Shown piece after piece: positions 15,001 to 21,000 of a DNA stretch of 64,000 nt (the first letter of the stretch is position 1; each line of letters begins with the position of its first letter). Made by a program: the position numbers. The DNA is from an archaeon. GTDB taxonomy: Archaea; Nanobdellota; Nanobdellia; Woesearchaeales; GCA-2686295. The stretch lies in NCBI GenBank assembly GCA_043822105.1, contig JBDRCD010000015.1, forward strand, positions 16,443 to 80,442. Direction: 5' to 3'.

Positions 15001-18000
15001 ACAAGTGGTGATTATGAGACAAATCAAAAAAAGAAGATACATTGTAACATTGATAATAACTCTTTTTATTTTTTTCTTCGGTACAATGTTAGGTATTCTG
15101 ATGGAAGGACAAAGAGTTCAGTACATTCAAGAAAAAACAGATGAACAAAAACTTGATTATATGAATCTTCAGTTTCAATATGAATTTATCAATCAATTGC
15201 GTGAAGATGCTAACTGTCCTTTGTTTATAAAAACTCTAAATTCAAATATAAGAACCTTGGAAGAAACAAGGGCCAGATTAACAGCCTATGATCTTGATGC
15301 GGTTGTAAGTAAACACGAGTTTGATTCGCTTTATCAGGATTATATACTGTCTCAGCTAAACTATTGGCTTTTGGCAAAAGATGCCAGAGACCTGTGTCAA
15401 TTGGAATCTGCAAGAATATTGTACTTTTTTTCAAATGATAAAGAATGCGACAGCTGCGAAGAGCAGGCATTTATTTTAACCTATTTGAAAAACAAACTTG
15501 GTGATAGACTTCTTAATTTTGCGCTTAATGCAGAGTTTAAGGATAATCAGGCTTTGAAATTGGTCATGGATTCCTATTCCATATCTGTTTTTCCAACTCT
15601 TGTAATTGAGGATGTAAAGTTTGAAGGTCTTACTTCCAAACAAGAAATACTTCAAGAAATATGCAAGTATTACAATGAATCAATAGATCTTTGCGAAGAA
15701 TACGGAGTTTTAACCGAATCTTAATTTTTTTTAATTTTTATTAAATCACCTAAAGTCATAAAGGGCGTTTCGTCTGATTTTGCAAAGGTTCCTTTTTCTT
15801 CATATTGAACAACCAGTCTTACTTTCAAGAAGCTTTCCAGTTTTCTTGCCAGCTCCATTGGCGGTTCCATATGTCCGGATTCTACTTGATGTATAATGGA
15901 TTCCTTTTCAGCAATTTTTTCAGCCAGTTCTTTTTGTTTTAGTCCAAGATTTTCTCTTTTATTTTTGACAATTTTAGCATAATTAGGAATTATTATTTGG
16001 ATTATTTCTCCTCTTTCAGCAACATTTGGCTTTTTTTCTTCTTCAACAGGTTTTGGTTTTTCTATTTTCTCAATCACTTCTCCATATTGACTGCAATTTT
16101 TGCAGACATTAAGAAATCCACCCTCTATTCTGCATTTAAATAAATCATTGTCAGATCCGCACATGTCACAATACATTATCCAGCCCCCCTATCTTTTTTT
16201 CCCTATGTCTTTGAAATAATTATTTATAAAATTTTTTATTTTGTGAATGTTGTAGCTATGTGTTCTTGCTGTCCAGAATAAATAACTTTTTCATCCGCAA
16301 CTTTGAATTTTTTATTCTTTGCAATGATTTTTAATAAATCATTTTTCAGTGTGCAAACAACCATCAATCCTTTGTTTTTTAATATGAATTCAGATTGATA
16401 GAACAATTCTTCATACATCTTTTCAACTTGTTTTTTTGAATGTCGCTTTGATTCTGCCGGAAGCTTTGTGACTATTTTGTCAACGCTTCCTTTTTCAAAT
16501 TTTGTATCTAGCCATTCAATATCTGCTTTTGAGAAATTTATATTATTTTCAACTCCTGCAATCTTGGCATTCTTCTTTGAACTATGAACATTTCTCAGAG
16601 TTTTATCAAGTGCATGAATTCCTTTTATTTTATTTTTAATTTTTTTGTTTTCTTTGTCAAATATTTTCTCAAACTTTTTATCAATTTTTTTGAATGAGAA
16701 ATCTTTTTTGTAAAAATTGACTGGTCTGTTCAGAGACATCAAAGCTGCTTCAATAGGAATAATTCCTGATTCACAATATGGGTCAACAAATATTTCACCT
16801 GATTTGTACTTTGATAATCTGACCAGTGCATAACCCAGAGTTCCTTTTAACGAACCTGACTTTGTGAATATTCTATAATCTCTTTTGCTAAGATCTCTGC
16901 CTGAAAAATCAATACAAAAATATGCTTTCTTATCTTTAATATAAATATAAAATATCAAACTACCTTCTTTTCTTTGTATTTCAAATCCAAAATCATGTAA
17001 AATTCTGCTTACTTCTTTTGAAAAATCAACACTACTGAAATCATGTTCTCCAATTCTTTCACATTCTACACCTATTTTTTTACCATCATACTCTTTTAGT
17101 TCTTTTCTGTTCAAACTTTTCTTGAACATAGAAATGCTTTTCTCAAGACTTTTATTGACTTCAAATTCTTTTATCAGGAGAAGAACTCTTCTAACCGATT
17201 GCGATGTGTATGCTAATCTGCAGAGATCTTCTTCGACTTTTATTGGAAACAGAACAACCGTATCATTCGATTGACATTTGACATTTATTTTCTCAGCTAT
17301 TTCAACCATTGCAATTTCTTCTAGTCCTTTGTCAACAATAACCATTCCCTTCATACTGTTCAAAATAATTGTTGCTTATATAAAGGTTTTCAAATGATTA
17401 CAAATAACGTTTGGATTGTGGTTTTTTAATAGACTATTTTTTCAAATATATTTTACATCACCAAAAAATATATAAATGATGCGTCACCTAAAAAACGCTA
17501 TATATTACATTTTGGAATAATTAACACACTACATCTAGTGTTGAAGGTGGATTTTAATGAAATGTCCTTTTTGTGGTTCAGACGATACAAAGGTAGTAGA
17601 AACAAGAGAAACTCTAGAAGAAGTTACAAGGCGAAGAAGAGAGTGTCTGAAATGTGAAAAAAGATTCACAACCTATGAAAGAGTTGAAATAAATCCACTA
17701 ATAATTGTGAAGAAAAATAATTTGAGAGAATCCTTTGACAGACAAAAAGTCAGGTCAGGAATGCTTAAAGCATGTGAAAAAAGACCGGTTTCCTTGGAGG
17801 ACATCGATAGAATGGTGGAGGAAATTGAATCTGAATTAAGAAGTGCCGATAAGGCAGAAGTTTCAAGTCAGAAAGTTGGTCTGTTGGTTATGAAGAAGCT
17901 CAAAAGACTTGATAAGATAGCCTACATAAGATTTGCAAGTGTTTATCGGGAGTTCAGAGACATTGATGATTTTGAAAAAGAGTTGAGGAAACTAATTAGA

Positions 18001-21000
18001 AAGTGAGGGGTTTTAATGATTAAAAAAGAAGCAAAAATAGAGTTTATAAAAAAAAGAGATGGACGAATAGTTCCTTTTAACAAAAGGAAAATAGAAGATG
18101 CAATATTTAAAGCTGCAAAATCTTTAGGTGGAAAGGATAGAAAAATAGCTGAAAAGCTTGCAACAAAAGCCGTTGAACTGTTACAAAAAACTTTCAAGAA
18201 TAAGTTTCCTGAAGTTGAAGAAATACAGGATGTTGTAGAGAAAACTTTGATTGAAAATGGTCACGCCAAAACTGCAAAAAAATACATTCTTTACAGGGAA
18301 GAAAGACGACAAATAAGGGAGAGTCAGAAAAAAGAAAAGGATTCTAAGGATGTTAGGGCTTTGCAAAAACAGGGAATTTTGTTAAGCAAACAGGCAATAG
18401 GAGTTCTTAACCATTCTAGACAACTGGGAGAGCTTGGGAGAGCAATATTTCTTGATAGATACTCCATAAAATCAAAAAAAGAAGATATTGGTGAAGGAGA
18501 TTTGGTTGTTGTAATAACTAAAGAAGATCCAAAATATCCTAAGAAAGATTTAGGAATTGTAAAAAAACTATTGAAACATGAAGAAATAATATTTCATATG
18601 TTAACCGGAATGTATGCTGATCCTGCCAATAATTATGAATTTAAACAAAATATTAGACGATGTGATAAACCTTTAGAAGGAGTGGATGCAGCCTATAAAA
18701 GAGTTGCAAAAGCCATAGCTTCTGCCGAAAAAACATCCGAGCTGAAAGAGAAATGGTTCCAGCTTTTCTGGAATGAACTGAAACAGAACCATATTCAGCC
18801 TGCCGGCAGAATAATGACTGGTGCAAACATAGATCAGTATGGAAATTACACATCAAACCTGACTCTGTACAATTGTTATGTAATACCATCTCCAAAGGAT
18901 TCAAGAGGTGCAATAGTAAAAGAAACACTTTATCAGATGACAGAAATAATGTCCCGCGGAGGAGGAGTTGGAATTTCACTTACAACTCTACGACCACGTT
19001 ATGCATATGTTAGAGGAGTTCATGGAAAATCATCCGGAGCAGTTTCGTGGGGTGGATTATATTCCTACACAACCGGTTTAATAGAACAGGGCGGTTCCAG
19101 AAGAGGTGCTTTGATGCTGATGCTTGCTGATTGGCATCCAGACATAGAAGAATTTATAGATTCAAAAAGAAAATCGGGAACCATTGAAAATGCAAATATT
19201 TCTGTAATGATCTCTGATAAATTTATGTCTGCCGTAAAAAAGAATAAAGATTGGAATTTGGAATTTCCAGATTATGAACATCCAGCATACAGTGATATTT
19301 ATGATGATGAATGGGATGGAGATATGGATGAATGGAAAAGAAAAGGATATCCTGTCAAAATCTATAAAGCAGTAAAAGCAAGAGATTTATGGGCTAAAAT
19401 AATTGAATCTGCATGGGCAAGTGCAGAACCAGGAGTTGTTTTTATGGAACGTTATAACAAATTAAGCAACTCTTATTACTTTAACAGACTAATATCTACA
19501 AATCCCTGTGGTGAACAGGGTCTTCCTGGTTGGGGGGTTTGTAATCTAGGACATCTGTATCTTGCATCATTTGCAGAAAAAGTAGGTGAAGATGAAGAAG
19601 GTCCACTCTATAAAATGGATTGGGAAGCTCTAAAAGTAGCTGCAAAAATACTTGTAAGATTCCTTGACAATGTAATTGATGTAACTCCATATCACTTCAA
19701 AGAAAATGAAGAAAATCAAAAAAAAGAAAGAAGAATTGGAGGAGGAACCCTAGGTCTTGGAGAATTATTAATAAAACTTCGAATGAGATATGGTTCATCT
19801 GAAAGTTTGAAATTTATAGACAGAATATATGAGACAATTGCTTCAGAAATGTATATTTCATCTTCAGACATTGCTAAGGAGAAAGGGCCATTTCCTAAAT
19901 TTGAAGCAGATAAATTTTTGGAAAGTGGTTTTATGAAAAAGATGCCTGAGAAAGTAAGATCTCACATAAAAAGGAATGGAATAAGGAATGTTTCTTTAAC
20001 AACTCAAGCACCCACAGGTACAGTCGGTTCAATGCTGGGAACATCTACCGGTATAGAACCTTTTTATGCCTTTGAGTTTTTTCAACAATCCAGATTAGGA
20101 TTTCATAAAGTAATGATAGAACTTGCAAAAGATTATACTAATAAAGGCAGTAAACTTCCAAATTATTTTGCCAGTGCAATGGATTTGAAACCTCTTGAGC
20201 ATATTAAAGTTCAGGCAGCAGTCCAGAGATGGACCGATTCATCCATAAGCAAGACTGCCAACGCACCCAATGATTTTACCATTGATCAAACAAGGGAAAT
20301 TTATGAGAAAGCCTATGATCTGGGCTGTAAAGGAGTAACAATATACAGAGATAATTCTAGAACCGAACAAGCATTATCAACCTCTGCTGAAACTGAAAAA
20401 AAGAATTTGGAATCAGCAAATAAAAGCAAAGAAACTAAAACTTTGGAAGAAGTAAAAAAAGCACTTGATCCAATCAGACATGAAAAGAAACCGATTTATG
20501 GTGCAGAACCAGGTGACACCTGTCCTTCATGTAAAGAAGGCATAATGATAAAAATAGGTGGTTGTACTCAATGTTCAAAGAACTGTGGATTTACAGGAGA
20601 GTGCGACATAAAATAAATAAATTCATAAATAATCAAAACAATGGTTTGATTTGAAATGAAAAAAAGCAAATATGTTTCAAGAATATATACTTTCACAGGA
20701 GACGAAGGATTCACAAAAACTCTCAAAGGAGATACAGTTTCAAAAGATAATTGTTTAATAGAAGTTCATGGAGACATTGATTCTTTGCAGGCAATGATTG
20801 ATAAACTTGTTGCCTATACAAAATTCAGTGAGATATTAACAGAGCAAAAAACAATGCTTCTAAGAACACAGGTTTTGCTGTGGCAGCTCGGAGGAGAATT
20901 TTCTCAGGGAAAAACAGGTGGGTTGGTAAATCAGCCTATTGATGAGACAGATGTTGAAGATTTGGAAAAATCAATTGATTCTTTTAATCTTGACCTGGAT

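Follow-up and report, generated by a model that had tools for sequence, protein, structure and literature searches.

A predicted autoregulated nrdR-nrdJ operon with tandem NrdR boxes on an archaeal-type promoter in a DPANN archaeon

Introduction

NrdR, a repressor found mainly in bacteria, controls the sole de novo route to DNA precursors. Here we report the analysis of a 64,000-nucleotide stretch of archaeal DNA (the window; positions 16,443 to 80,442 of contig JBDRCD010000015.1, GenBank assembly GCA_043822105.1, lineage Woesearchaeales) in which an nrdR gene lies directly ahead of nrdJ, the gene for a class II ribonucleotide reductase (RNR). A preliminary description of this sequence had read the locus as a horizontally acquired bacterial repressor acting on archaeal transcription machinery. 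The locus thus raises the question of whether repressor, operator and target form a regulatory unit on an archaeal promoter, and how widely such a unit is shared. We consider it probable that this is an autoregulated nrdR-nrdJ(-pduO) operon of a DPANN archaeon, in which a canonical NrdR binds a tandem operator on an archaeal promoter. Our case is built on gene family membership, on the sequence and spacing of the operator, on conservation, and on the fixed placement of the operator relative to the TATA box across DPANN archaea.

[quoted passage not shown] A 2010 study lists nrdR-nrdAB operons that haloarchaea received from bacteria (PMC3019208). The two operator surveys consulted here covered bacterial genomes only (PMC12051234 and PMC13584703). 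None of the papers we searched names NrdR together with DPANN. To our knowledge, all experimental work on NrdR has been carried out on bacteria.

Results

The NrdR protein

As judged from its sequence, the neighbourhood of 17557-18006 is a complete NrdR unit of repressor, tandem operator and target RNR on a genuinely archaeal contig. All of the elements reported in the preliminary description were recovered where it had placed them or within a few bases, including an nrdR gene with zinc ribbon and ATP-cone directly before the class II RNR gene, an arrangement confirmed here by profile matches and a gap of 9 nt. The features of the unit are as follows.

17461-17468, + strand: A-rich stretch resembling a B recognition element (BRE), conserved in relatives
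17469-17476, + strand: TATA box TATATAAA, conserved in relatives
17495-17510, no strand assigned: box A, distal and weak, ACGCTATATATTACAT; overlaps the predicted transcription start site (TSS) at ~17500
17511-17525, no strand assigned: linker, 15 bp between the boxes
17526-17541, no strand assigned: box B, proximal and strong, ACACTACATCTAGTGT
17545-17550, + strand: Shine-Dalgarno (SD)-like AGGTGG, 6 nt before the nrdR ATG, read from the sequence
17557..18006, + strand: nrdR, 149 amino acids, zinc ribbon followed by ATP-cone (Pfam and NCBIfam profiles)
18016..20616, + strand: nrdJ, class II (adenosylcobalamin-dependent) RNR with an N-terminal ATP-cone
20656..21204, + strand: PduO-type ATP:cob(I)alamin adenosyltransferase gene (pduO; PF01923, 101 bits; TIGR00636, 94 bits, just below the cut-off of 108)

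The nrdR product matches the NCBIfam equivalog model TIGR00244 with 194.1 bits against a cut-off of 124.65, over residues 1-146 of 149, together with the zinc ribbon family Zn_ribbon_NrdR (PF22811, 63 bits) and the ATP-cone family (PF03477, 74 bits, residues 49-135). NCBI already names this exact protein NrdR. Matches to solved structures include those of E. coli NrdR (E=3e-45), to which it is 52.7% identical, and S. coelicolor NrdR (E=1e-32). When compared with 34 bacterial NrdRs, it agrees with the bacterial residue in 43 of the 49 columns that are at least 90% conserved, and the other six are conservative changes. These 43 columns, and the intact state of nrdR in all relatives, point to clear purifying selection. 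The four zinc cysteines (C3, C6, C30 and C33, in two CxxC motifs) are all present.

Among DNA-contacting residues we checked R12, D15, R17 and R37 (S. coelicolor numbering). The window protein has RRRR at 25-28, R17 and R36, with K12 for R12 as in E. coli. The specificity residue D15, which contacts a base in S. coelicolor NrdR (PMC9110341), is replaced by E15 (codon 17599-17601), a conservative change common to the relatives of the window and to sequences from the candidate phyla radiation (CPR).

Operator sequence and spacing

Six positions of the NrdR box are highly conserved in bacteria (C4, A6, A8, T9, T11 and G13), and paired boxes follow a linker-length rule of 15-16 bp (PMC13584703). 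The exact published regular expression for a box pair (PMC12051234) finds no pair in the window; it misses the operator described here because box A lacks G13. When relaxed to one mismatch it returned 52 pairs against ~50 in shuffled sequence and was rejected as non-specific in DNA of 32% GC. We replaced it with a position weight matrix (PWM) derived from 34 boxes of 17 other DPANN loci, independent of the window, and with a stricter bacterial-consensus criterion.

No site in the 64 kb other than box B (ACACTACATCTAGTGT) comes within two mismatches of ACACWANATNTWGTGT, for which ~0.004 exact matches would be expected in the window by our own base-composition estimate. Box B carries all six key positions, and 14 of its 16 bases are those of the bacterial consensus. 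Its PWM score of 18.95 bits ranks first among 64,000 positions, in keeping with the near-palindromic NrdR box reported upstream of nrdR; the maximum in shuffled sequence averages 13.6 bits, and 18.95 was reached in 1 of 200 shuffles. Box A (ACGCTATATATTACAT) starts 31 bp before box B, leaving a 15-bp linker and thus the canonical spacing, and it retains C4, A6, A8, T9 and T11 (5/6 key positions) with A in place of G at position 13. Together, A and B form the best pair in the window, scoring 21.9 bits where 200 shuffles reach 19.9 at most. The weaker second box of the preliminary description is thus present, 31 bp away start to start, although it is weaker than had been implied and lacks the critical G13.

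Comparison with close relatives helps to separate the functional parts of this region. The upstream regions of six syntenic relatives, which share the Trm14 / nrdR-nrdJ-pduO arrangement and whose NrdRs are 70-86% identical to that of the window, were aligned to give a footprint, expressed as mean pairwise identity per block (locus numbers carry the prefix L).

BRE-like stretch: 0.76
TATA: 0.76
TATA-to-box-A spacer: 0.35
Box A, left half: 0.82 (ACACTA in the relatives)
Box A, right half: 0.59
Linker: 0.39
Box B, left half and right half: 0.84 and 0.76

The differences in identity between blocks suggest that operator and promoter are under selection and that the DNA between them is not. Box B, as ACACTA..TAGTGT, is almost invariant (10/16 columns fully so). 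Firm conservation within box A is limited in this lineage to the half-site ACACTA. Three relatives (L081, L085 and L087) retain G13; L083, L084 and the window lack it, and the window has also changed A3 to G. Since the lone score of box A is at chance level, we accept it on its position and on the conservation of its left half in relatives.

Several points weigh against a tandem operator that works as in bacteria. Box A has neither G13 nor a G at position 14, and by itself scores 2.9 bits under the PWM, which is chance level (~106 such sites are expected in the window). D15 has become E15 in the window lineage. The scan covered 64 kb of the genome, and the regulon may be larger. We know of no archaeal NrdR that has been studied experimentally. 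Finally, tested bacterial NrdRs require C4, G13 and two boxes (PMC13584703, Table 3), and in E. coli a single G-to-C change at position 13 abolished binding and isolated boxes were not bound (PMC13584703), so that by bacterial rules the window operator should be weak.

The explanation that best survives alongside our own builds on these points and holds that the operator is degenerate: box A would have decayed in the window and its two closest relatives, NrdR would bind box B plus a half-site weakly or not at all, and the operon would be largely derepressed or otherwise controlled. The pattern of G13, kept in three relatives and lost in two and in the window, and the change of A3 to G fit such decay, as do A13, the missing G at 14, the score of 2.9 bits and the requirements of the bacterial proteins. 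Against it, conservation of the left half of box A is on a par with that of box B (0.82 versus 0.84), the 15-bp linker length has been kept, and nrdR itself is under purifying selection and intact in all relatives. Both S. coelicolor and E. coli have natural, functional boxes that depart from the consensus (PMC13584703), and cooperative binding by a tetramer could tolerate one poor half-site. On balance we think it unlikely that the operator has decayed. The window operator may be weak, or its E15 NrdR may have relaxed binding rules.

Elsewhere within the 64-kb window we found no convincing box or pair that would mark another member of the regulon. The second-best single site, GTACAAGAACTTGTGT at 36836-36851 (12.95 bits), lies 9 nt upstream of an open reading frame for a NUDIX hydrolase (36366-36827, - strand); without a partner box and with a score that shuffled sequence also reaches, it is probably due to chance. 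A threshold-level pair, CCTCTAGCTTTAGTAA and AGGCAATATATATAAA (32504-32549), has its boxes 30 bp apart, at 32504 and 32534, upstream of a UDP-glucose 6-dehydrogenase gene; it was likewise judged a chance occurrence, its second box being the TATA of the downstream gene.

Promoter and leader

Archaeal promoters were recognised by a TTTAWATA-type TATA box following a purine-rich BRE, ~24-27 nt upstream of the TSS. The A-rich stretch at 17461-17468 and the TATA box at 17469-17476 are of this type in sequence and resemble the promoters of leaderless genes in the window, and the latter, reported in the preliminary description just upstream of the boxes, is the same TATATAAATGATG element as in the promoter of the leaderless gene at 32574.

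Most transcription units in the window appear to begin with a leaderless gene, which has a TTTAWATA-type box ending 21-25 nt before the ATG and no SD; examples are the genes starting at 2541, 3776(-), 4829(-), 7769(-), 8524(-), 9750, 23798 and 32574. GGTG-type SDs are found at operon-internal genes and at a few first genes (nrdR, 4863-5738(-), 42813-43520(-) and aMBF1). nrdR is a leadered exception: 80 nt separate its TATA from the ATG, and it has a good SD. The leaderless genes of the window served to calibrate the distance from TATA to TSS (TATA 3' end 21-25 nt before the ATG). By the 24-nt rule, the TATA at 17469-17476 predicts a TSS within box A, at ~17500, and a leader in which box B would occupy ~+27 to +42. 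The divergent trm14 gene has its own TATA ~22 nt before its ATG, and the nrdR-proximal TATA is therefore not borrowed from it. Sigma-70-like hits around the boxes occur at shuffle expectation, and none brackets box A. The operator thus appears to sit on an archaeal BRE/TATA promoter in a position compatible with repression, its distal box overlapping the predicted start site. The contrary outcomes that the preliminary description had listed for box enrichment and operator placement were not seen.

A different geometry would arise if TATATATT, in the centre of box A (17499-17506), were the real TATA, with the TSS in box B at ~17530 and NrdR competing with TATA-binding protein (TBP). The box A centre is indeed a good TATA-like octamer after an A-rich stretch, and the 21-25 nt rule would place the TSS at 17528-17532, with a leader of ~27 nt that still includes the SD. 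However, the upstream BRE and TATA are conserved at 0.76 and are not needed by trm14, with its own TATA ~22 nt before the ATG. Moreover, in other DPANN loci the box A centre is often not TATA-like (L010, L046, L062 and L071), whereas box A is always preceded, at 8-26 nt, by a canonical TTTAWATA, which makes this geometry the less likely one; we hold it to be improbable, somewhat more so than operator decay.

The position of box B in the predicted 5' leader, where it can form a 6-bp hairpin, also invites the idea that the palindrome acts in RNA (as leader hairpin, attenuator or riboswitch) or is a functionless chance palindrome. We give this very little credence: the leader RNA folds no better than shuffled sequence (z=0.49; 138/200 shuffles fold as well), no Rfam family or riboswitch was matched in the nrdR upstream region, and the relatives show no compensatory changes that preserve pairing, the arms being invariant. 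Furthermore, box B has all six key positions of a protein-binding consensus and is conserved, and the pairs at 31-33 bp in other loci are not something that a hairpin would require.

A further conserved block lies upstream of the promoter.

17441-17460, + strand: AT-rich block T1, TTTTTTCAAATATATTTTAC, ~24 nt upstream of the nrdR TATA, conserved in relatives

T1 has a mean pairwise identity of 0.73 and 10 invariant columns among the six syntenic relatives, and is as conserved as the TATA and the boxes. AATATAT occurs at the same 24-nt distance from the TATA in distant DPANN nrd promoters (L004, L013, L053 and L087). We considered T1 as a third NrdR box and rejected it, as it has no C4/G13 in any register and its position is fixed to the TATA, not to box A. 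T1 might serve as a second TATA-like element or as a binding site of some other factor; the divergent trm14 does not need it.

Comparison with other archaeal and bacterial loci

The preliminary description had called NrdR overwhelmingly bacterial, which proves overstated: 22% of archaeal genomes have it (PMC13584703), and among the best 120 homologues of the window protein (60-100% identical; from 5.8 billion proteins), nearly all of those named by source come from Woese-, Nano-, Aenigm- or other DPANN archaea.

We examined 30 archaeal loci with a box-pair criterion taken solely from the bacterial consensus. Of these, 20 carry a pair upstream of nrdR or RNR genes; 21 pairs fall in the 10 kb upstream of such genes and one in the remaining 206 kb, an enrichment of ~430-fold that speaks for a true association of the box with nrd genes. 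In the 25 DPANN loci with a recognisable pair, the start-to-start spacing of the boxes is 31-33 bp and a TATA precedes box A by 8-26 nt (median 16) in all 25, with the predicted TSS inside box A in 24. In contrast to this fixed arrangement of TATA and box A, box B stands between 4 and 245 nt ahead of the start codon, depending on the locus. This suggests that the operator is positioned by the promoter and not by the coding sequence, as would be expected for control of initiation. In CPR loci, which have the same box pair, box A fills the interval from TTGACA to the -10 hexamer and the TSS is closely followed by box B.

In a quick neighbour-joining (NJ) tree all archaeal NrdRs cluster, three CPR sequences are nested among them, and other bacteria fall outside; as the sample was chosen by similarity to the query and resolution is low, the tree is an indication only. 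Synteny of the cassette extends to relatives with as little as 70% NrdR identity. A type of NrdR and NrdJ common to DPANN and CPR fits an old exchange between the domains, in either direction, rather than a recent acquisition.

Some individual loci deserve mention. E15 is found in the window lineage, two other archaeal loci and three CPR bacteria (L009, L020, L027, L062, L071 and L081-L087). Most box half-sites of the E15 lineages are CTA..TAG, two CPR loci having CCA or CGA in their box A; CAA..TTG half-sites predominate among the D15 DPANN loci. Both forms are inside the known W5/W12 degeneracy, and the correlation of E15 with half-site is an apparent one. The woesearchaeotal locus L006 has three consecutive box-like sites (1631-1707), 30 and 31 bp apart, the first of which overlaps the TATA and may be due to chance; the arrangement resembles the three boxes reported for Thermotoga nrdJ (PMC13584703). 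Five loci (L001, L003, L023, L062 and L071) are labelled “uncultured Methanosarcinales archaeon” in third party annotation (TPA) records; their NrdRs cluster with DPANN in the NJ tree, and the labels may be automatic misassignments.

nrdJ and pduO

The start of nrdJ is 9 nt past the nrdR stop, with an SD (GAGGGG) overlapping the nrdR stop codon. Its product matches TIGR02504 (NrdJ_Z) with 535.8 bits (cut-off 399.95), as well as the RNR barrel family PF02867 (377 bits), PF00317 and, for the N-terminal ATP-cone, PF03477 (85 bits). The nearest homologues of NrdJ are from DPANN archaea (66-88% identity), followed by many from Patescibacteria (62-66%). In most of the DPANN loci examined, an RNR gene stands directly 3' of nrdR.

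PduO-type enzymes produce adenosylcobalamin (AdoCbl), the cofactor of NrdJ, and pduO is probably the last gene of the nrdR-nrdJ operon. It directly adjoins or overlaps nrdJ in L081 and L085-L087 (with overlap in L086 and L087), and is also found near nrdJ in the CPR locus L020. The cofactor-making enzyme thus appears to have been co-inherited with the class II RNR across the lineage and is probably co-regulated with it. The 39-nt gap between nrdJ and pduO in the window holds a TATA-like CATAAATA, 24 nt before the pduO ATG, so that an internal pduO promoter is possible.

The host contig

That this contig is archaeal had been argued from its histone, Hjc, PAN and FEN-1 genes, and all four were verified here. 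The archaeal markers in the window are as follows.

858-1997: PAN
5802-6833, - strand: archaeal FEN-1
9497-9703, - strand: histone
9750-10151: Hjc
15721-16176, - strand: aMBF1
16236-17363, - strand: Trm14

Trm5b is also encoded on the contig. aMBF1 and Trm14 are the immediate upstream neighbours of nrdR, GC content is uniform (0.29-0.36) with no break at the nrdR operon, and the order Trm14 / nrdR-nrdJ-pduO is repeated in independent assemblies (L081, L083, L085 and L087). An assembly or binning artefact, in which a bacterial nrdR-nrdJ piece was chimerically joined to or mis-binned with archaeal DNA, might be suspected from the mainly bacterial distribution of NrdR and from the Patescibacteria as the source of the nearest non-archaeal NrdJ homologues, but is effectively refuted by these flanking genes and the other archaeal markers on the same contig, the even GC, the recurrent synteny, and an archaeal-type promoter with no sigma-70 site flanking box A, unlike those of CPR loci.

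The remainder of the window contains a stand-alone 5S rRNA gene (32320-32436, - strand; Rfam RF00001, 78 bits) with no 16S or 23S gene nearby, and no tRNA genes were found within the 64 kb. From ~32574 to 60000 there is a long series of genes for sugar-nucleotide, glycosyltransferase and cell-surface biosynthesis functions, including UDP-glucose dehydrogenase, an asparagine synthase-like amidotransferase, aminotransferases and a flippase-like protein; further glycosyltransferases are encoded at 12296-15011.

Discussion

In bacteria, NrdR acts as a tetramer on two boxes under the control of dATP and ATP (PMC9110341 and PMC13584703). For the window we propose a similar mechanism, of which the TSS, DNA binding, nucleotide control and repression are predictions. 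TBP and transcription factor B (TFB) would bind the BRE and TATA at 17461-17476, and transcription would start at ~17500 in box A, yielding a ~57-nt leader with the linker, box B and the SD. A leader of this kind is unusual where most first genes are leaderless. At a high ratio of dATP to ATP, NrdR would load both nucleotides in its ATP-cone and assemble into the DNA-binding tetramer. The two zinc-ribbon dimers of this tetramer would bind boxes A and B, three helical turns apart, with kinking of the DNA. Lying over ~-5 to +42, the tetramer would leave the TATA untouched and block either RNA polymerase (RNAP) recruitment or promoter clearance. The outcome would be less RNR, less NrdR and, probably, less of the AdoCbl-forming enzyme encoded by pduO. 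A block downstream of the TATA is the usual position for archaeal repressors.

The reading of the locus as a bacterial-type repressor on archaeal machinery was right in substance and is partly supported: a complete unit is found on an archaeal promoter, but it is not specific to this genome, the rarity of NrdR in archaea was overstated, and the acquisition appears to be old and lineage-wide. That NrdR operators have been systematically re-plugged onto archaeal promoters throughout DPANN, possibly via exchange between CPR and DPANN, is to us an evenly balanced proposition. In the window sublineage, with its E15 NrdR and a box A that lacks G13, the binding rules may also differ from those worked out on the bacterial protein.

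NrdR in archaea is already on record, and most archaeal regulators are of bacterial type, so that its presence here will not surprise specialists. What is added is limited to a comparative view of operator anchoring on archaeal promoters. The window locus and its 24 DPANN counterparts show the same operator grammar in archaea, anchored to the TATA and the predicted TSS, and offer a testable case of a bacterial-type repressor on basal machinery of the archaeal (eukaryote-like) kind. The unit would also be one more shared module among the genes exchanged between DPANN archaea and CPR bacteria. If true, re-plugging across DPANN would be a case in nature, spanning several lineages, of a single repressor-operator module transferred between the transcription machineries of two domains.

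The closest experimental reference is the bacterial NrdR system of S. coelicolor nrdRJ and of E. coli nrdAB, nrdHIEF and nrdDG (PMC9110341, PMC13584703 and PMC12176259). The window protein belongs to the same family, with two CxxC motifs, RRRR, R17 and the ATP-cone, and the operator likewise consists of two 16-bp partial palindromes with a 15-bp linker; the predicted autoregulated nrdR-nrdJ operon recalls S. coelicolor nrdRJ in particular. In contrast to the bacterial operator, which overlaps the -35 and -10 elements, that of the window lies downstream of the BRE and TATA, over the predicted TSS and leader. It also differs in its archaeal host, a box A without G13, and a repressor with E15 for D15.

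The haloarchaeal operons described by Lundin et al. in 2010 (PMC3019208) are a precedent for nrdR moving with its target RNR into archaea by horizontal transfer. They involve a class I RNR in Halobacteriales, some on plasmids and with specific bacterial donors, and were reported with no operator or promoter analysis; the window unit concerns a class II RNR in DPANN, where it is widespread and appears to be old.

The CPR/Patescibacteria loci (L009, L020, L027, L088 and L089) hold the closest non-archaeal relatives of both proteins, with NrdJ at 62-66% identity. Their NrdRs are nested in the archaeal NJ cluster, and they share E15, the box pair with its spacing and, in L020, a pduO gene near nrdJ. 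They differ in that box A lies between TTGACA and the -10 hexamer, whereas in DPANN it follows the TATA by 8-26 nt, and in that nrdR is not adjacent to nrdJ in L088 and L089.

Among archaeal systems, the nearest parallel is in operator position. The repressors MDR1, LrpA, Phr and TrmB, which are helix-turn-helix (HTH) or winged HTH (wHTH) proteins, bind at or just downstream of the TATA and TSS, and the position of the window operator likewise predicts a block to RNAP recruitment with TBP and TFB still binding. The protein families are nevertheless unrelated, NrdR combining a zinc ribbon with a nucleotide-sensing ATP-cone.

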